Shown here piece by piece: positions 53,519 through 61,461 of a stretch of DNA of 64,000 bases. The position numbers and the translations under genes are program-made. The stretch's first letter is position 1. Each line of letters begins with the position of its first letter. Under the pieces are notes generated by a model that saw nothing but the letters and a program-made list of their open reading frames with translations, was not told the origin of the DNA and did no database searches. Where the stretch lies: the IMG/VR virus record IMGVR_UViG_3300046832_000578. One strand, given 5' to 3'. This stretch comes from a virus.

Positions 53519-54178
53519 ATGAGAGTTAAAATGATTATGACCTATATCCTTGCATGTAGTCTAGGATTGATAACTGTTGGATGTTCAACATTCAGCAAAG
53601 ATCCTAATAAAACTGTTGAGATTCCAGCAAACAAATTGGATAATATTCCACAGTGGTATCTTGTAAAAGATCCAGACGACACTAAGTTTATTGTAGTCAC
53701 TGCAACAGACATATCAAAAGATATGCAATTTGCTATTGATAAAGCAACACTAAACGCTAAGATTCAACTTGCAGCAAGATTAAAATCAGATATTGATTCT
53801 GTTACTCGTGAAACAACCACTGAGAATGGTAGTGGTGGAGCATCAGTTGAACGAGAAATTGATCGTGTGTCAAAGGTTCGTGTCAAACAGGCATTGGGTT
53901 TCTTTAAACGAGAAAACATTGCAGTGTTTAAAGAGGGTGACTCATATCGTGCCTATGTGCAATTTAAGATTTCTACAGAGGATGCTCGTCGTATGACTCA
54001 ACCAGTGGGTAATGCTAAAAGCAGAGAAGATAAGTTCAAAGAGTTGGAAGATGAACAACCAGCTGCACGATCAATTTCAGTAGCACCACTTGATGTTGAT
54101 AATGAAGAATACAAACAACGAAGAGAAGCTGCACTAAAGAAACCTGGAGCAGTAATTAATCAATATACATTGCGATGA
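53519..54178 (+). CDS. lipoprotein (LPP20-like)
   Basis: lipobox ITVGC; IPQWY; DMQFAIDKA. Confidence 0.7.
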   Translation: MRVKMIMTYILACSLGLITVGCSTFSKDPNKTVEIPANKLDNIPQWYLVKDPDDTKFIVVTATDISKDMQFAIDKATLNAKIQLAARLKSDIDSVTRETTTENGSGGASVEREIDRVSKVRVKQALGFFKRENIAVFKEGDSYRAYVQFKISTEDARRMTQPVGNAKSREDKFKELEDEQPAARSISVAPLDVDNEEYKQRREAALKKPGAVINQYTLR

Positions 54179-54624
54179 AACAAAAATGGATTGATGCATT
54201 CATGGACACTGCGGAGAGATTCGCCCAGTTGTCCAGTGCAAAACGATTACATGTTGGTGCGGTTGTCGTTAAAGACAATCGTATCATCTCAATTGGATAT
54301 AATGGTATGCCATCTGGATGGACAAACGAATGCGAAAATGTAGTTCAACATTCAGATGACACTGTGAGTTTAGTAACGAAAGACGAGGTTATACATGCTG
54401 AAGCAAATGCAATTATCAAACTGGCTCGTGATGGTGAATCAGGCAATGGCTCCAGTTTATTCTGCACTCATGCTCCTTGCATTCATTGTGCTAAGTTAAT
54501 TCATGGTGCAGGAATAGATACAGTTTACTATCGCCACTCTTACAGAGACGAGGATGGTTTATCTTTTTTGCAAAAATGTAAAATAAATGTTGAAAAAGTT
54601 GACTTTAATTCAATAATGAACTAA
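54175..54624 (+). CDS. cd: dCMP deaminase
   Basis: GYNG, HAEANAI, PCIHC. Confidence 0.93.
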   Translation: MKQKWIDAFMDTAERFAQLSSAKRLHVGAVVVKDNRIISIGYNGMPSGWTNECENVVQHSDDTVSLVTKDEVIHAEANAIIKLARDGESGNGSSLFCTHAPCIHCAKLIHGAGIDTVYYRHSYRDEDGLSFLQKCKINVEKVDFNSIMN

Positions 54625-54657
54625 GATAGTGACTAAATAGATTACTGTCTGAAACAA

Positions 54658-54721
54658 AACCCTACAAGATGTAAGGTTATTCCAGATAGTGCTTGACAAA
54701 TAATCAAAGGTGTAGTATAAT
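54658..54721 (+). promoter_or_regulatory. consensus sigma70 promoter of the tRNA operon with upstream palindrome
   Basis: AACCCTAC-N5-GTAAGGTT; TTGACA-17-TATAAT (54693-54721). Confidence 0.85.
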
Positions 54722-54727
54722 TCAATC

Positions 54728-54853
54728 ATGAAATCGAAAATGATATCCAAACAAATGCAAAGACATCTCCCGCTATTAAGTGGCTGGACATGCTCACGCA
54801 CAACATTTGGATATAATGCGATTGAGGATGCCGAGGGTTTGGATAAGAAGTAA
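54728..54853 (+). CDS. putative leader peptide of the tRNA-operon attenuator (41 aa)
   Basis: ATG at the predicted transcription start; 31 distinct codons; last codons overlap the antiterminator arm. Confidence 0.7.
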   Translation: MKSKMISKQMQRHLPLLSGWTCSRTTFGYNAIEDAEGLDKK

Positions 54854-54913
54854 CTGACACCAGTCTACTTACCCAAACCCTCTGAGATGAAAGTCCAGAG
54901 GGTTTTTTGTTTT
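54833..54913 (+). terminator. mutually exclusive antiterminator (54833-54882) and terminator (54875-54913)
   Basis: gagggtttggataagaag pairs with ctacttacccaaaccctc; aaaccctctg/cagagggttt stem plus T tract. Confidence 0.8.
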
Positions 54914-54961
54914 ATAGCCATCGTGCTTTAAACATTGTTCTTTTACAATTCAGGATTCTGT

Positions 54962-55035
54962 TGGGGGTTAGTGTAGCGGTAACACTACAGACTTTGACTC
55001 TGTCATCACTGGTTCGATCCCAGTACCCTCTGCCA
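54962..55035 (+). tRNA. tRNA-Gln(UUG)
   Basis: cloverleaf, anticodon TTG, CCA. Confidence 0.9.
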
Positions 55036-55101
55036 TATAAAAACACATTAGTTCCCCGCAGGGATAATTGACAACAGGTTCATGCTAGTGTGTTTCTATA
55101 T

Positions 55102-55175
55102 GGGAGTATAACTTAATGGTAAAGTAGCTGGCTTTTAACCAGCAAATCAGAGTTCAATTCTCTGTGCTCCTACCA
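55102..55175 (+). tRNA. tRNA-Lys(UUU)
   Basis: anticodon TTT, CCA. Confidence 0.9.
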
Positions 55176-55187
55176 GTGTTCTTTGGT

Positions 55188-55261
55188 GTGACTATAACTT
55201 AATGGTAAAGTCGTGGATTGTGATTCCGCTTATCTGGGTTCAATTCCCAGTAGTCACCCCA
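55188..55261 (+). tRNA. tRNA-His(GUG)
   Basis: anticodon GTG, C73, CCA. Confidence 0.88.
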
Positions 55262-55272
55262 AAGAATATTAT

Positions 55273-55348
55273 GCCGATATAGCTCAGTTGGTAGAGCACT
55301 TGTTTGAAGCACAAGGTGTGGGCGGTTCGATCCCGTCTATCGGCACCA
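55273..55348 (+). tRNA. tRNA-Phe(GAA)
   Basis: anticodon GAA, CCA. Confidence 0.9.
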
Positions 55349-55353
55349 GATAT

Positions 55354-55428
55354 TCCCGATTAGCTCAGCGGTAGAGCACTCGCTTGATAAGCGATAGGTC
55401 AGTGATTCGAATTCACTATTGGGAACCA
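55354..55428 (+). tRNA. tRNA-Ile(GAU)
   Basis: anticodon GAT, CCA. Confidence 0.88.
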
Positions 55429-55434
55429 AGTTAT

Positions 55435-55526
55435 GGAAGATAATGCAGCGGGGTTGGTCCTGCGACCAGCCTTGAAAACTGGGTTCTGAGAAATCGGATG
55501 GGGTTCGACTCCTCTGTCTTCCGCCA
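55435..55526 (+). tRNA. tRNA-Ser(UGA)
   Basis: anticodon TGA, long variable arm, G73. Confidence 0.88.
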
Positions 55527-55534
55527 CATTATGT

Positions 55535-55609
55535 GCCTCGTTATTTCAGTGGTAGAATGTCTCTTTTACACGGAGAAGGTCGGCAGTTCGAATCTGTCAC
55601 GAGGTACCA
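55535..55609 (+). tRNA. tRNA-Val(UAC)
   Basis: anticodon TAC, CCA. Confidence 0.9.
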
Positions 55610-55610
55610 T

Positions 55611-55685
55611 GCGTCTTTAGTAAAATGGATATTACAGTAGGCTACGAACCTACGAGTGGGAGTTCGATTCTCTCAGGACGCACCA
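55611..55685 (+). tRNA. tRNA-Arg(ACG)
   Basis: anticodon ACG, CCA. Confidence 0.9.
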
Positions 55686-55691
55686 AGATTA

Positions 55692-55781
55692 GGAAGATGG
55701 GCAGGACGGTAATGCAGCAGTTTGCTAAACTGTAGATTCACGGAAGTGGGTCATAGGGTTCGATTCCCTAATCTTCCACCA
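55692..55781 (+). tRNA. tRNA-Ser(GCU)
   Basis: anticodon GCT, long variable arm. Confidence 0.88.
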
Positions 55782-55786
55782 AAAAT

Positions 55787-55861
55787 GGGCTGGTAGCTTA
55801 ATGGTAAAGCAGTGAACTCATAATTCATTGAGTCTGTGTTCAATTCACAGTCAGCCCACCA
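55787..55861 (+). tRNA. tRNA with CAU anticodon, probably Ile2 (lysidine)
   Basis: anticodon loop CTCATAA, GGGC acceptor start. Confidence 0.75.
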
Positions 55862-55862
55862 T

Positions 55863-55941
55863 GCCCCTGTGGACAAATTGGGAAAGTCGTCTCTCTCAAA
55901 AGGAGAAATTGTTCTGAGTTCGAATCTCAGCAGGGGTACCA
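55863..55941 (+). tRNA. tRNA-Leu(CAA)
   Basis: anticodon CAA, A73, short variable region. Confidence 0.85.
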
Positions 55942-55948
55942 GAGTTTT

Positions 55949-56025
55949 GCGGATATGATGGAATTGGTATACATATCAGACTTAAAATCTGAGTTCTCCG
56001 AGTTCGAGTCTCGGTATCCGCACCA
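55949..56025 (+). tRNA. tRNA-Leu(UAA)
   Basis: anticodon TAA, A73, short variable region. Confidence 0.85.
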
Positions 56026-56026
56026 T

Positions 56027-56101
56027 ACGGCATTCGTTCAATGGATAGGACAGCACTCTTCTAAAGTGCGAATGTGGGTTCGATTCCTGCATGCCGTGCC
56101 A
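56027..56101 (+). tRNA. tRNA-Arg(UCU)
   Basis: anticodon TCT, CCA. Confidence 0.9.
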
Positions 56102-56108
56102 GAATTAT

Positions 56109-56185
56109 GTGGGTGTGCTGCTGAATGGTTAGGCGACGGATTGCAAATCCGTTTTATGCAGGTTCAAGTCCTGTCACCCACTCCA
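56109..56185 (+). tRNA. tRNA-Cys(GCA)
   Basis: anticodon GCA, U73. Confidence 0.9.
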
Positions 56186-56201
56186 AGTTGCAAAATACTT
56201 G

Positions 56202-56230
56202 TTGTCTTGCAAGATTAGTTGTAGTATAAT
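56202..56230 (+). promoter_or_regulatory. internal promoter of the tRNA array
   Basis: TTGTCT-17-TATAAT. Confidence 0.75.
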
Positions 56231-56366
56231 AGTTTATTCAAAAGTCCTTTCTAAGTCGTGTGTCAATTCATACGCATAAGGCAGAGCATGGCACTGGATG
56301 TTGCAAATCGCCTACACACCTCCCATGCAAGCAGGTTTGGTGGTTCCTGATAAAAACTACCACTAT

Positions 56367-56441
56367 GCACGATTCGTCTATCGGTTAGGACACTGCCCTT
56401 TCACGGCAGGAAGAGGAGTTCGATTCTCCTATCGTGTACCA
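56367..56441 (+). tRNA. tRNA-Glu(UUC)
   Basis: anticodon TTC, CCA. Confidence 0.9.
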
Positions 56442-56442
56442 G

Positions 56443-56669
56443 ATTTAATTACATTGGTTACCAAGCCAGTAGGTAATTCAGATAGTGAGTAACCAGTTGA
56501 CGGACTGGCACTTCTGAGTTACACGAAAGATGGAAATCAGCATAGGCTTCGATCAGTAGTCACGCTGGAACAACTTGGTGCGTAATGTGTGCGACAGACA
56601 AGTCCATGGACGGCATGGTAGGGCAGGTTCAAAACTGTTATTTCTGTCAAACACCCAGTGTAATTAAAT
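56443..56669 (+). ncRNA. candidate structured ncRNA closed by a 15-bp stem
   Basis: atttaattacattgg / ccagtgtaattaaat; GC-richer interior. Confidence 0.5.
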
Positions 56670-56670
56670 G

Positions 56671-56824
56671 TGGTATTAGTTTAGTGTTATCAAGGTATCG
56701 TGATCTGATCAATCACTACTCGACAGTAAGGGTGCGACCGACACTGTCTGATATAACTGTTATTCGCTTGTCAGTGCTAGCTACATTGTTGACAAATTGG
56801 CACGATAACACTAAACTAATATCA
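56671..56824 (+). ncRNA. candidate structured ncRNA closed by a perfect 18-bp stem
   Basis: tattagtttagtgttatc / gataacactaaactaata. Confidence 0.5.
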
Positions 56825-56826
56825 TT

Positions 56827-56911
56827 GGAGACACGGCACAGTTGGAGGGGTGCGGCAGACTGTAAATCTGTTCTTTAGGGCTAGTAGGTTCGAATCTTAC
56901 TGTCTCCACCA
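56827..56911 (+). tRNA. tRNA-Tyr(GUA)
   Basis: anticodon GTA, variable arm. Confidence 0.88.
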
Positions 56912-56917
56912 GTTTTT

Positions 56918-56992
56918 GGCTCGTTAGTATAATGGTCATTACAGCGGATTGTCTATCCGCTTATGGGAGTTCGATTCTCCCACGAGTCGCCA
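56918..56992 (+). tRNA. tRNA-Asp(GUC)
   Basis: anticodon GTC, G73. Confidence 0.9.
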
Positions 56993-56998
56993 GATTAT

Positions 56999-57072
56999 AG
57001 CGGATTAGAGAAAAGGTATCTCAGCAGTCTCATACGCTGCAGTTGGTGGTTCGAGTCCATCATCCGCAACCA
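56999..57072 (+). tRNA. tRNA-Met(CAU), initiator-like 1:72 mismatch
   Basis: anticodon CAT; A1.A72 mismatch. Confidence 0.75.
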
Positions 57073-57316
57073 AACCTGCAGCTAATCACTGCTAGTGTGA
57101 TCCGCACGAGAGAAACTGATTGACGATCAGTAGGATGGTTCTCCCTTTGAATAGGGCATGGGTTCATCCATGGGTCTACCTAACCAGCGTTGGCAACACG
57201 AGAGTTCTGTCCGTGGCGAGTGGGTGGAGGGCATGCTTGATGGAGAAACTGGTGCGATGTACACAATCCAGAAGTAAACTGATGTGCTATAATTACCACG
57301 ACGGAGAGAAAGCATT
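57073..57316 (+). ncRNA. candidate ~245-nt structured ncRNA between tRNAs
   Basis: GC-rich spacer with several hairpins and long-range ccgtgg/ccacg pairing. Confidence 0.5.
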
Positions 57317-57317
57317 T

Positions 57318-57391
57318 GCCCAATTAGTTAAATGGTAGAACATCGGTTTTGTAATCCGAGGATGGGAGTTCGATTCTCTCATTGGGCACCA
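57318..57391 (+). tRNA. tRNA-Thr(UGU)
   Basis: anticodon TGT, CCA. Confidence 0.88.
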
Positions 57392-57397
57392 AATTTC

Positions 57398-57472
57398 GGT
57401 GATGTAGCACAGCGGTAGTGCAACTGCTTCATACGCAGTAGGTCAGTGGCTCGAATCCACTCATCACCACCA
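57398..57472 (+). tRNA. tRNA-Met(CAU), elongator
   Basis: anticodon CAT, paired 1:72. Confidence 0.82.
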
Positions 57473-57480
57473 AAAGTTTT

Positions 57481-57557
<77 letters not shown>

Positions 57558-57574
57558 AGATAAGTAGTGTTATT

Positions 57575-58312
57575 ATGAAACGAATGGCATTATACCTGCA
57601 CGACCCAGAATGTTCTGAAGATTGCGTATATGCAATGGTTCATGCACTGTCGTCTTCATATCAAATTAGAATTTTTAGCGAGAGGGAATTAGATGATGAT
57701 GACTTCTTTACCAGTATTGATGTTATTGCTTTTCCTGGTGGTATTGGTGATAGCGACTCGTATTTTAATTTCTTCACTAGAAGAAGAGCGAATCGAATCG
57801 CCGAATTCATACAGAGAGGTGGTTGCTATCTTGGTATCTGCATGGGTGCTTATTGGGCTGGAAGTCGGTATTTTGATATACTGGATAATTTAGATTCTGT
57901 ACAGTATATCAAAAGACCAACAGCAGACATTCGCAGATCTTATGCCACGACTGCTAAGATAGAATGGAATGGCTCGACAGAGCAGATGTACTTCTATGAT
58001 GGTTGCACTTTTGTTGGAGAGAATTTTAAAACAATTGCGACATATGCCAATGGTGATCCAATGGCAATCATTCAAGGAAGAGTAGGATTAATAGGATGTC
58101 ATCCTGAAGCACCAAAGTATTGGTATGAGAAACCATGGCAATACATAGAGAAACATTGGAACGATGGAAGACACAGTGAGTTATTGTTAGATTTTGTAAA
58201 CGAGTTATGCCCAGATGGTGGAATTGGTAGACACGCTGGTCTTAGAAGCCAGTCTTCGGGTGAGAGTTCGAGTCTCTCTCTGGGCACCATACAAGGAGAA
58301 CAGATTGCGTAA
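57575..58312 (+). CDS. class I glutamine amidotransferase-like (BPL_N-like) protein; 3' end runs through tRNA-Leu
   Basis: FPGG, YLGICMGAY nucleophile elbow, GCHPE. Confidence 0.8.
   Translation: MKRMALYLHDPECSEDCVYAMVHALSSSYQIRIFSERELDDDDFFTSIDVIAFPGGIGDSDSYFNFFTRRRANRIAEFIQRGGCYLGICMGAYWAGSRYFDILDNLDSVQYIKRPTADIRRSYATTAKIEWNGSTEQMYFYDGCTFVGENFKTIATYANGDPMAIIQGRVGLIGCHPEAPKYWYEKPWQYIEKHWNDGRHSELLLDFVNELCPDGGIGRHAGLRSQSSGESSSLSLGTIQGEQIA
58209..58289 (+). tRNA. tRNA-Leu(UAG)
   Basis: anticodon TAG, typical Leu D-arm, CCA. Confidence 0.9.
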
Positions 58313-58550
58313 TCTGAAAGGTAAGCGTATCAAAGAATTCGGTAGTACAGTAGTTGTTGAAGATGGTAAGTTTGAAAAAGCAATCAGACAATTCAAGAAG
58401 AAAGTAGAAGATAGTGGATTGTTGATGTTGTTGCGAGAAAAACAAGCATATATTAAACCAACAACAAAAAGAAAAGTAGCAAAGAATGCAGCTAAGAAAA
58501 GATGGAAAAAGAAATTAGCACTGCAATCAATGCCTGAGAAATTATATTAA
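58305..58550 (+). CDS. rpsU: ribosomal protein bS21
   Basis: FEKAIRQFKKKV...GL...LRE...Y.KPTTKRK...AAKKR; AAGGAG RBS before TTG. Confidence 0.9.
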   Translation: MRNLKGKRIKEFGSTVVVEDGKFEKAIRQFKKKVEDSGLLMLLREKQAYIKPTTKRKVAKNAAKKRWKKKLALQSMPEKLY

Positions 58551-58557
58551 GTTTTAT

Positions 58558-58632
58558 TCCAGTGTAGCACAGCGGTAGTGCAGTTGACTGTTAATCAATT
58601 GGTCGTTGGTTCGATCCCAGCCACTGGAGCCA
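58558..58632 (+). tRNA. tRNA-Asn(GUU)
   Basis: anticodon GTT, G73. Confidence 0.9.
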
Positions 58633-58637
58633 GTTTT

Positions 58638-58712
58638 GGGTTGTTAGTTTAGTTGGGAAAACACTTGCCTTGCACGCAGGAGTGGGGAGTTCGAATCTCC
58701 CACGATCCACCA
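58638..58712 (+). tRNA. tRNA-Ala(UGC)
   Basis: anticodon TGC, G3.U70. Confidence 0.9.
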
Positions 58713-58728
58713 AATAAGTAGTTGTTAT

Positions 58729-58804
58729 GCTCTGTTAGCTCAGTTGGTAGAGCAACTGATTAGTAATCAGTAGGTCTGCGGTTCGAATCCGTAACAGAGC
58801 ACCA
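58729..58804 (+). tRNA. tRNA-Thr(AGU)
   Basis: anticodon loop TT-AGT-AA, canonical cloverleaf. Confidence 0.88.
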
Positions 58805-58820
58805 AATTATAGGAGTAGAT

Positions 58821-59039
58821 ATGAGTGATGGTGGTAAAGGTAGTAAACCAAGACCATTTAGTGTAGATCAAGAAACTTTCGAGAATAATTTCGATAGAAT
58901 TTTTGGTAAAAAGAATACATTGCCAGAGTATGAATTAAACAAATCAACTGGCGAAGTGCAGAAAGTGGATGACAACACAGGTGTGACACAGGATGAGTAT
59001 CAAGACATTCTCAGCACCGAAGATTGTCTAACAAAATAA
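58821..59039 (+). CDS. hypothetical protein (MSDGGKGSKPRP family)
   Basis: AGGAG RBS. Confidence 0.7.
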   Translation: MSDGGKGSKPRPFSVDQETFENNFDRIFGKKNTLPEYELNKSTGEVQKVDDNTGVTQDEYQDILSTEDCLTK

Positions 59040-59040
59040 T

Positions 59041-59114
59041 ATCTCGATAGTGTAATGGCAGCATACCAGTCTCCAAAACTGTTGGTCGGGGTTCGAGTCC
59101 CTGTCGGGATGCCA
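59041..59114 (+). tRNA. tRNA-Trp(CCA)
   Basis: anticodon CCA, G73. Confidence 0.88.
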
Positions 59115-59116
59115 AT

Positions 59117-59190
59117 GCGGGATTAGTTTAATGGTAAAACTACAGATTTCCAATCTGTTGTTATCAGTTCGATTCTGATATTCCGCTCCA
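59117..59190 (+). tRNA. tRNA-Gly(UCC)
   Basis: anticodon TCC, U73. Confidence 0.9.
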
Positions 59191-59208
59191 ATTAAGATAG
59201 AGGTAATC

Positions 59209-59685
59209 ATGCGTAAAGATATTGACATCGATGAAGTGAAAGACTTTATCATGGCACAGAGTCCTGAATCAAAGATTTATATCGGTGGTGACTCTGAACG
59301 ATTTAATATCGGAAATGAATTCTACGCTGATTACATCTTAGTAATTGTTGTTCATATTAATGGTAATAATGGTTGTAAAATCTTCGGTGAAGTGTCTCGT
59401 GAGAGATGCTACGACCAGAAGAAAGATAAACCACGTATGCGATTGATGAATGAAGTTTATAAGATTGCAGATCTATACCTAAAACTGCATGATGTTCTGG
59501 AGGACAGAGAAGTCCAAGTGCATCTGGATATCAACCCAGACGAAATGCATGGATCATCATGTGTAATCAACGAAGCAGTTGGTTACATTAAAGGTATGTG
59601 CAATGTAGTTCCATTCGTAAAACCAAACGCATTTGCAGCATCCTACGCTGCAGACAGATACAAGTCTTACATGCGTGCAGCATAA
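59209..59685 (+). CDS. RNase H-like YkuK (DUF458) family protein
   Basis: IYIGGDS, RLMNEV, VHLDIN, KPNAFAAS.AAD. Confidence 0.8.
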   Translation: MRKDIDIDEVKDFIMAQSPESKIYIGGDSERFNIGNEFYADYILVIVVHINGNNGCKIFGEVSRERCYDQKKDKPRMRLMNEVYKIADLYLKLHDVLEDREVQVHLDINPDEMHGSSCVINEAVGYIKGMCNVVPFVKPNAFAASYAADRYKSYMRAA

Positions 59686-59686
59686 T

Positions 59687-59715
59687 TTGACATGCAGTCT
59701 ATTTTATTGTATAAT
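59687..59715 (+). promoter_or_regulatory. consensus sigma70 promoter
   Basis: TTGACA-17-TATAAT. Confidence 0.8.
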
Positions 59716-59728
59716 AAGTAGTAAGAGT

Positions 59729-59803
59729 GCAGGATTAATTCAGTGGTAGAATGTCTGCTTGCCAAGCAGAATGCCATCGGTTCGAACCCGATATCCTGCT
59801 CCA
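59729..59803 (+). tRNA. tRNA-Gly(GCC)
   Basis: anticodon GCC, U73. Confidence 0.9.
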
Positions 59804-59816
59804 ACATGGAGATAAT

Positions 59817-60017
59817 ATGACAGATAAAGTTGAACCAATTTCGTTTAAAGAGCAGTGGGAAGCAAAGAAACTACTCAAGCGTACCAAGAAGAAAGCCAAG
59901 AAAGATCTGCTCAATCGTGGACATTCTCCCAGAGAAGCCAGTGGTATGATTAAGCAAGCACTCAAAAATATTCAATCCAATAAGCCAATCAAACGTGCTG
60001 CTGGACGAGGTGGATAA
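59817..60017 (+). CDS. small basic hypothetical protein
   Basis: GGAG RBS. Confidence 0.6.
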   Translation: MTDKVEPISFKEQWEAKKLLKRTKKKAKKDLLNRGHSPREASGMIKQALKNIQSNKPIKRAAGRGG

Positions 60018-60025
60018 AAAAGTTT

Positions 60026-60033
60026 TATAAATA
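60026..60033 (+). promoter_or_regulatory. T4-type late promoter
   Basis: TATAAATA. Confidence 0.7.
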
Positions 60034-60420
60034 GATGTGAATCAGGGAAAGGGAAAAAGAACTGATTCGCCTTTATTATTGTTAGTATAATCACCGAAAA
60101 GATGTGAAAAGGGAATAGGTGGAGTAGTTGTTTTTATTATTAGGATTCCAAAGATAATGTTAAATTTCGGACAAAGTGCGATTGAGTTCGTGTCCTTACC
60201 AAGAATAGTGAGCATTCTCACTGCGGTAGGATATGAATCTTATTTCCCACGACCTTAGTACTCAGTCGAGTTACTCGAACATCTGCGTATGGCTCAATGC
60301 CATCTGCGGAACAGTACACTGCTACACATTTTCTAACGATCCAACAATACAGATCCGCAGATGGCTCAATGCTGTCTGCGGATTTTTTCATTCTAAATTC
60401 CCTTTTTACGGAGTAAAAAT

Positions 60421-61461
60421 ATGCCTTCTACAATCTTAGGCGAACACGCACTCACACTAGTAGCAGGAACTACTGCACAACGACCAGCGTCACCAGTCGA
60501 AGGTATGACTCGATATAATACAACAATTGGTGTAGTAGAATCGTATCATGGCACAGGTGGATGGATTGCATTATCCAATGTCTTTCAAGCAGTTGGTGGA
60601 ACAGAAAGTACTATTAGTGGATACAAATATCATATATTCACATCATCATCTACATTTACAGTTCAATCTGGTACAAGAACTGTTGAATTCGTTGCAGTTG
60701 CTGGTGGTGCTAGTGGTGGTGGACGACATGGTGGTGGTGGCGGTGCTGGTGGTATGGTTATTGGGTCTCGTTCTGTAGCATCTGGTGCATATACAGTTAC
60801 AGTTGGTGGTGGTGGTGCTGCTGCTTACGGTTCACAGGTTGCAGGTAATGATGGTGGAACTACATTCTTTGGTGACACTGCAACTGGTGGTGGTGGTGGT
60901 GGTGCATACAATGGCACAAATGGTCGAAATGGTGGATCTGGTGGTGGTGCTGGTCACTCAAATACAAATGCTGGAGCATCAAATCAAGTAGCATCTACTT
61001 TTGGTACTGCTTATGGTTTTGCAGGTGGCAACAATCCATCTGGTGGTAATGAAGCATCAGGAGGTGGTGGTGCTGGTGGTGTTGGTGCAGTCGCACAAGG
61101 TGAGGTTAAAGGTGGTGATGGTGGCGCAGGAAGAATATGGTCTGATGGATACTACTATGCTGGTGGCGGTGGTGGAGCAGCGTGGGCAGGTAATACTGGT
61201 GGCACTGGAGGTATTGGCGGTGGCGGTGGTGGAAATATTGCTGGTGGTGCTGGTACTGTTGGACAAGGTGGTGGTTCTGCCAGAAATAGTGGGCAAGCAG
61301 GTGCAAATGCACCAAACAATAGTGTAGCTACCTTCGGAGGAGCAGGTGGTGCAAATACTGGTGGTGGTGGTGGTGGATCAGGACAAGCAGATAACGAGGG
61401 TTATATTAGTTACTCTGGTGCTGGTGGATCTGGTATCGTTGTTATTAGATATGAATTATAA
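60421..61461 (+). CDS. glycine-rich virion (fibre-type) protein
   Basis: GTTAQRP, YKYHIFT, many GGGG runs, GSGIVVIRY end. Confidence 0.8.
   Translation: MPSTILGEHALTLVAGTTAQRPASPVEGMTRYNTTIGVVESYHGTGGWIALSNVFQAVGGTESTISGYKYHIFTSSSTFTVQSGTRTVEFVAVAGGASGGGRHGGGGGAGGMVIGSRSVASGAYTVTVGGGGAAAYGSQVAGNDGGTTFFGDTATGGGGGGAYNGTNGRNGGSGGGAGHSNTNAGASNQVASTFGTAYGFAGGNNPSGGNEASGGGGAGGVGAVAQGEVKGGDGGAGRIWSDGYYYAGGGGGAAWAGNTGGTGGIGGGGGGNIAGGAGTVGQGGGSARNSGQAGANAPNNSVATFGGAGGANTGGGGGGSGQADNEGYISYSGAGGSGIVVIRYEL

Follow-up and report, generated by a model that had tools for sequence, protein, structure and literature searches.

A putative ribosome-mediated attenuator with a near-complete amino-acid leader peptide heads the tRNA array of a T4-like phage

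We found that the tRNA array of a T4-like phage is preceded by an element which, judged from its own sequence and that of its relatives, is probably a ribosome-mediated transcription attenuator (we put the probability of this reading at about 0.7). The DNA under study, called the window here, is a stretch of 64,000 nucleotides from the IMG/VR virus record IMGVR_UViG_3300046832_000578. Sequence comparison establishes the parts of the element: a short ORF, the signals that would start it, two helices that compete for the same bases, a peptide that is a pangram or close to one, holding nearly every amino acid, and a position at the head of the array. Since the ORF draws on nearly every tRNA, such a switch would gauge overall decoding capacity.

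The window comes from a T4-like phage of lake water. It encodes a T4-type replication and nucleotide-metabolism module (gp43-like DNA polymerase, DnaB-like helicase, ligase, ribonucleotide reductase and dCMP deaminase), its DNA polymerase shares about 54% identity with the polymerases of T4-like cyanophages, and its DNA is found in lake-water metagenomes. No DNA relative of the leader was found in cultured-phage records, and a tblastn search with the leader peptide against 50,697 phage records gave 0 matches. The tRNA array and the protein genes within it are the following:

54962-59803, + strand: tRNA array of 27 genes for all 20 amino acids, the first being tRNA-Gln(UUG)
57575-58312: protein gene within the array, BPL_N/GATase-like
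58215-58550: protein gene within the array, homologue of ribosomal protein bS21
59209-59685: protein gene within the array, RNase H-like PF04308 protein

The Pfam match of the bS21 homologue begins at residue 45 of the listed ORF, and the 5' part of this ORF overlaps tRNA-Leu. Between tRNA-Ile and tRNA-Val, the Rfam tRNA-Sec model matches at 55435-55522 with 35.6 bits, below its gathering score of 47; ARAGORN called no tRNA in this segment, which may correspond to an extra long-arm tRNA or a tRNA-like RNA. Near the end of the array, a second 12/12 promoter (59687-59715) lies 13 nt upstream of tRNA-Gly(GCC) with neither a leader ORF nor a terminator in between, and the putative attenuator thus does not precede every tRNA.

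The element itself lies immediately upstream of the array and comprises these features:

54693-54721, + strand: sigma-70-type (T4-early-like) promoter TTGACA-17-TATAAT, score 12/12
54728-54853, + strand: leader ORF of 41 codons, predicted to be leaderless, with stop codon TAA at 54851-54853
54770-54783, + strand: small intra-ORF hairpin CCGCU / AGUGG with loop AUUA, predicted by RNAalifold
54785-54802, + strand: block conserved at the nucleotide level, TGGA-N6-CACGY-NCA, codons W-T-C-S-R-T
54833-54850, + strand: arm 1, the final six ORF codons and 5' arm of the predicted antiterminator
54865-54882, + strand: arm 2, the 3' arm of the predicted antiterminator, whose last 8 nt (54875-54882) double as the terminator 5' arm
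54875-54913, + strand: intrinsic terminator with a GC-rich stem, a GAAA tetraloop and a T6GT4 tract
54914-54961, + strand: spacer of 48 nt to the first tRNA, with a small hairpin (54916-54927) and an A/U-rich tract

Only two 12/12 promoter sites occur in 14 kb, and the leader promoter is one of them. The ATG of the ORF follows 6-7 nt past the -10 hexamer, and its A occupies the usual position of transcription start. A preliminary description of this DNA had reported the promoter, the ATG at the expected start site and the 41-codon ORF, and all three are found where it had placed them. About 15 nt upstream of the leader promoter lies a palindrome, (A)CCCTAC-N5-7-GTAGGGT (54658-54678 in the window); the same type of palindrome is present between the terminator and a second promoter in the spacers of several relatives with long gaps (L186, L165, L089 and L082). 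It resembles a palindrome-plus-promoter module that has moved or been duplicated, or else an operator.

Two hairpins can form at the end of the leader. Arm 1 pairs with arm 2 at 16 of 18 positions, as had been claimed, and the resulting hairpin (54833-54882) is present in the RNAfold minimum-energy fold of the 188-nt leader, from which the terminator is absent. This fold has a z-score of -4.6, and equally good folds were obtained in none of 200 shuffles. In the terminator, which was also correctly described as an intrinsic terminator just before the first tRNA, AAACCCTCTG (54875-84) pairs with CAGAGGGTTT (54896-54905), and T6GT4 follows up to 54913. Past a one-base bulge the stem continues with further pairs and is capped by the GAAA tetraloop; a simple terminator scan missed it because the unextended loop measures 11 nt. 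The two hairpins have 54875-54882 in common and are mutually exclusive, as the preliminary description had stated.

To count paired positions in relatives we used an 84-sequence MAFFT alignment fitted to no structure; raw mutual information was confounded by relatedness and alignment register, and structure-based counts were used in its place. Both hairpins covary, which bears out the covariation that had been suggested as a check. In the antiterminator (columns 136-155 with 181-200), the share of paired cells is 88.9% and drops to 38-61% when the partners are slid by 1-3 columns; seven pairs have changed on both sides. Examples are columns 154-182 (GC in 36 sequences, AU in 34) and 145-191 (UA in 61, GC in 10), both of which lie outside the segment common with the terminator. 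The terminator (columns 192-204 with 213-224) is paired in 97.9% of cells and has five compensatory pairs. Across relatives the two helices overlap by 8-10 bases, and in 83 of the 84 sequences the antiterminator occupies 5 nt or more of the terminator 5' arm.

The mean folding energy of the antiterminator is -25.1 kcal/mol, compared to -18.0 kcal/mol for the terminator. Since the antiterminator is also transcribed first, termination should require a ribosome on arm 1, and a transcript that is not translated should be read through. The position of the ORF relative to the hairpins is kept as well: in 73 of 74 distinct sequences the start of arm 1 lies 4-10 codons ahead of the stop, and the stop codon falls in the upper stem or the loop of the antiterminator. 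The proposal of a trp/his-type geometry, with termination when a ribosome reaches the stop codon, fits this comparative evidence, the covarying antiterminator being made first and the more stable of the two.

Relatives were collected by two routes. Searching the neighbours of the dCMP deaminase gene in viral contigs yielded 27 loci with a homologous leader, and a DNA pattern made of a partial ORF core and the T tract yielded 119 loci, 118 of them true members. The ORF is kept alongside the hairpins in all 118, as expected from the preliminary description, with 76 distinct peptides of 37-46 aa, and the indels in its alignment are multiples of three. Its start signals vary. Among 73 distinct upstream contexts, 61 have a promoter scoring at least 9/12 with the -10 box 6, 7 or 10 nt before the ATG, nine have no such promoter and carry an AGGA ribosome-binding site 10-13 nt upstream, and three have a weaker promoter. 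That a single ATG is served by two alternative modes of translation start argues that translation itself is under selection.

Wherever a locus extends beyond the element, a long array with tRNA-Gln(UUG) as its first gene begins 29-536 nt downstream, and no tRNA was found upstream of the element in the relatives' loci. The 68 distinct spacers fall into two classes. Twenty-eight are short (28-49 nt, the class of the window) and have no sigma-70 promoter of at least 9/12, except for one 9/12 match; none was detected in the window's own spacer (54914-54961) at the same threshold. About 40 are longer and contain a TTGACx-17-TAxxAT promoter directly after the terminator, which amounts to about 60% of distinct relatives, and the ORFs with a ribosome-binding site all belong to this class. 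Because of this second promoter, the attenuator would only add to a constitutive flux in the long-spacer phages. The earlier claim that the element controls the tRNA operon would therefore apply in full to the short-gap class, including the window, and has to be restricted for the relatives with the extra promoter.

Several features of the spacer deserve mention. In short-gap relatives the stem of the small hairpin at 54916-54927 covaries (AGC/GCT, GGC/GCC, GGG/CCC) around an invariant CATCGT loop, and it may be where processing takes place or a protein binds. Immediately 5' of tRNA-Gln, an A/U-rich tract (GTTCTTTAAAAATTT or GTTCTTTTACAATTC; about 54935-54961 in the window) is conserved; as it is kept in both spacer classes, it is part of the pre-tRNA 5' leader, and it is a candidate RNase E or RNase P processing context. 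The window's spacer also contains, within 54924-54949, TGCTTTA followed, after 13 nt, by TACAAT (54944-49), about 12 nt upstream of tRNA-Gln. The pair resembles a T4 MotA-dependent middle promoter and could be one; the MotA-box-like TGCTTTA is not conserved in the relatives.

Two more distant loci were also observed. A diverged member (L050:4083-4340) has a promoter, a 5' UTR of about 33 nt with AAGGAA, and a 42-codon ORF; its core cannot be aligned, its antiterminator/terminator pair is the same, and its 42 residues include all 20 amino acids. At a second locus (L011:4697-4850) a homologous terminator and an arm 1-like pairing follow a different ORF of 30 codons with 16 kinds of amino acid. 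This one lies upstream of a gene with a ribosome-binding site, not of tRNA-Gln, and the switch may have been reused there in another context.

Some RNA data are available. Parts of the window were found in six metatranscriptome runs, and three studies yielded contigs that run across the terminator into tRNA-Gln (54572-54965, 54705-54973 and 54875-54988), one RNA-library contig spanning the leader promoter too. These contigs are weakly compatible with read-through, as contigs show neither the starts nor the ends of RNAs and may derive from DNA carry-over; segments that no contig covers carry no information.

The composition of the peptide is unusual. In the window it contains 19 of the 20 amino acids, Val being absent, and uses 31 different codons in 41. 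Random 41-aa windows of the phage's ORFs hold 15.8 +/- 1.8 distinct amino acids, and 3.3% of them reach at least 19. All 20 amino acids are present in 52 of the 76 distinct peptides, and the other 24 are without just one (Val in 20, Cys in three and Asp in one); Val is thus absent from 26% of leaders despite the encoded tRNA-Val. His, Trp and Tyr occur exactly once in 100% of the 76 peptides, and Cys once in 95%. These single residues are mobile, with the His found in five alignment columns, the Cys in six and the Tyr in six. When columns were shuffled, a control that leaves relatedness in, the number of distinct amino acids went from 19.68 in the real peptides to 18.26 +/- 0.09 (maximum 18.55), and the share of peptides with all 20 dropped from 0.68 to 0.11. 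So many separate relocations are difficult to account for unless selection keeps at least one codon of each kind. Further members of the family, from a different protein collection, are also pangrams.

The codons point the same way. By standard wobble rules, 25 of the 26 tRNA species of the phage have a codon to read among the 40 sense codons of the window's ORF, the exception being tRNA-Val(UAC). Random 40-codon windows are read by 16.9 +/- 2.3 species (maximum 23), and 25 was reached in none of 2737. Among the relatives, 21 carry at least 25 tRNA genes on the locus; in these, 23.9 of 25.6 species are covered by the leader, compared to 16.5 for random windows. Leader codon usage is also atypical for the phage, with a CAI-like value of 0.54 versus 0.72 +/- 0.07 and a GC3 of 0.42 versus 0.29. 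The near-complete peptide and the sampling of 25 of 26 tRNA species lend independent support to the idea of tRNA sensing put forward in the preliminary description.

We found no family for the leader peptide in Pfam or PHROGs, and AlphaFold2 gave no confident fold (pLDDT 60.6, pTM 0.12), which is not evidence that a fold is absent. Some of its conservation is at the level of amino acids: Leu14, Pro15, Leu16 and Gly19 are constant with varying codons, and P15, W20 and R24 are invariant across the leader peptides. In the block at 54785-54802, codon third positions are invariant and first positions variable. This block and the three invariant residues go beyond what codon sampling alone accounts for, and may reflect pausing by the polymerase, an effect of the nascent peptide or binding of a factor. 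Just upstream of the block, the hairpin at 54770-54783 is paired in 93% of cells in relatives, with compensatory changes at two pairs, and is a candidate pause or timing hairpin.

A number of other explanations for these sequences were tried and rejected. On inspection, the invariant bases of the block fit a consensus elemental pause (G-10 Y-1 G+1) in no register. An overlapping ORF in the +1 frame (54780-54857), which might have caused the invariant third positions, runs into a stop codon in a number of relatives, such as those with TGG ATG AAC in the core. Arm 1 contains G GGU UUG/U, and a -1 frameshift at this site was set aside since its sequence is forced by mimicry of the terminator arm; in the window the -1 frame stops immediately. 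Finally, pairing of CUGGAC (54784-89) with GUCCAG of the terminator 3' arm is lost in relatives.

On this basis we propose the following mechanism. Host RNA polymerase would start at the A of the ATG and produce a leaderless mRNA for the 41-codon ORF, and a ribosome would load on the 5' end of this transcript. Arms 1 and 2 would form an antiterminator of 20-28 bp that is made first and takes 8-10 bases of the terminator 5' arm. A ribosome following close behind the polymerase and reaching the stop codon would hold arm 1 unwound; with arm 1 occupied, arm 2 would pair with arm 3 of the terminator, and transcription would end at the T tract with an RNA of about 186 nt. If the ribosome were absent, late or stalled more than about 4 codons before arm 1, the antiterminator would form and the polymerase would read into tRNA-Gln and the rest of the array. 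We infer the ribosome-polymerase coupling, a synchronising pause and the regulatory response itself from this arrangement.

With about one codon for each amino acid and each phage tRNA species, the ORF would probe decoding capacity in general. Synthesis of tRNA would rise whenever almost any tRNA ran short or translation was blocked, and would fall when the supply sufficed, so that the array's own products would exert negative feedback on the array. The switch would also react to the disappearance of host tRNAs, for instance when tRNA-targeting defences cleave them. Its sensitivity should have limits. Having mostly one codon per amino acid, the ORF should be a poor sensor of mild shortage. The single Asp codon and a conserved Glu stand 2-3 codons before arm 1, and by footprint geometry a ribosome that stalls at either of them would be expected to lie over the base of arm 1 and promote termination, which leaves about 17-18 amino acids in the effective zone.

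Part of this evidence could be read in other ways. The leader could be an ordinary small-protein gene with its own promoter and terminator, whose peptide has a target in trans, such as host translation or tRNA metabolism, the array being expressed via other promoters or leaky read-through. Amino-acid-level conservation at L14, P15, W20, R24 and an AIE.D motif would fit such a gene, as would the separate promoter after the terminator in most relatives and the fact that gene callers list the leader family as 'hypothetical protein' in metagenomes. However, it would leave unexplained that the last codons form a covarying 20-28 bp hairpin which disables the gene's own terminator, that a 40-aa peptide has all 20 amino acids with a mobile single His, Cys and Tyr, and that phage tRNAs are covered almost completely by atypical codons. 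Considering also that the peptide has no predicted fold and no family match, we regard a small-protein gene as very unlikely.

Neither a pangram nor codon coverage at the level of isoacceptors would be needed if the switch mainly sensed working translation or leaderless initiation, or a nascent-peptide arrest at the W...R(P/T) core, instead of individual tRNAs. To our knowledge, this core matches no known arrest motif. Such sensing draws its interest from the expectation that the antiterminator wins without a ribosome, so that any global translation block would give read-through, and from the invariance of P15, W20 and R24 and of the third positions in the W-T-C-S-R-P block, the latter suggesting a specific cis signal; we consider it unlikely. 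It is most improbable that the terminated transcript of about 186 nt is chiefly a structured regulatory RNA acting in trans, with the ORF secondary. All 118 relatives retain the ORF, its indels come in threes and it has alternative signals for starting translation; the pangram is a protein-coding feature, and the leader matches no Rfam family. The strong leader fold (z = -4.6), the nucleotide-level conservation and the covarying internal hairpin do agree with a functional RNA, and rnTrpL is a precedent for an attenuator-derived sRNA (PMC6614838). A role in trans could coexist with attenuation rather than replace it.

Our preferred reading remains attenuation by a translating ribosome. For its most specific form we would give even odds: a minimal ORF would probe nearly every aminoacyl-tRNA species once and, through a translation-dependent terminator, give a T4-like phage homeostatic, defence-responsive control of its complete set of tRNAs. 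Depletion of host tRNAs, their cleavage by anticodon nucleases or a lack of charging would raise output, and adequate decoding would lower it.

The element can be compared with known systems. In its structure it conforms to the definition of a leader-peptide attenuator, apart from the regulatory codon run. As in the enterobacterial amino-acid leaders (trpL, hisL, leuL, thrL, pheL and the multivalent ilvGMEDA leaders), a short promoter-proximal ORF is followed by an intrinsic terminator that precedes the regulated genes and is overlapped by an antiterminator, and the position of the ribosome would select the helix, with termination when it is at the stop codon. Unlike these leaders, which regulate biosynthetic enzymes, it precedes phage tRNA genes and its mRNA is predicted to be leaderless. 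They carry runs of a single codon, whereas here no amino acid has a run of codons and nearly all 20 are present about once. The trp leader has four segments and the phage leader three, corresponding approximately to regions 2, 3 and 4, without region 1 and the 1:2 'protector'; lacking this protector, an untranslated transcript should not be super-attenuated.

A further known system is the pheM leader of pheST, where, like here, a component of the decoding machinery is under leader attenuation according to the supply of charged tRNA. Unlike the phage element, pheST is chromosomal, senses one amino acid by a run of Phe codons and has a synthetase as its target. T-box riboswitches also sense tRNA status with an antiterminator/terminator switch, but they bind uncharged tRNA directly via a specifier codon and the T-box bulge, without translation, whereas the ORF here is conserved and predicted to be translated. 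Over 54000-60500 Rfam found only tRNAs and weak chance matches, with no T-box sequence at the leader; given the lack of an Rfam match and this ORF, the leader is not a T-box. The pyrBI and pyrE attenuators read ribosome-polymerase coupling, like the element proposed here, but with the opposite sign, since a close-following ribosome prevents the terminator. The tRNA genes of T4 and T5 are clustered and expressed from early or middle promoters, small stable RNAs and small ORFs lie among them, and we know of no leader-peptide attenuator in these clusters. Our literature search turned up neither an account of tRNA genes controlled by a leader peptide nor one of an all-amino-acid leader.

The function of phage tRNA genes is debated, and codon compensation, replacement of the degraded host pool and escape from tRNA-cleaving defences have all been put forward (PMC10264068, PMC11464382, PMC11555353). 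The regulation of their expression is almost unstudied. With its consensus sigma-70 promoter and canonical terminator, the element should be directly testable in E. coli or in reconstituted transcription-translation. If our reading is true, its ORF would be a natural minimal 'all-amino-acid' reporter, and leader-peptide attenuation, known from amino-acid operons, would also occur at tRNA genes and in viruses. A phage would then be shown to measure decoding capacity and adjust its tRNA supply.
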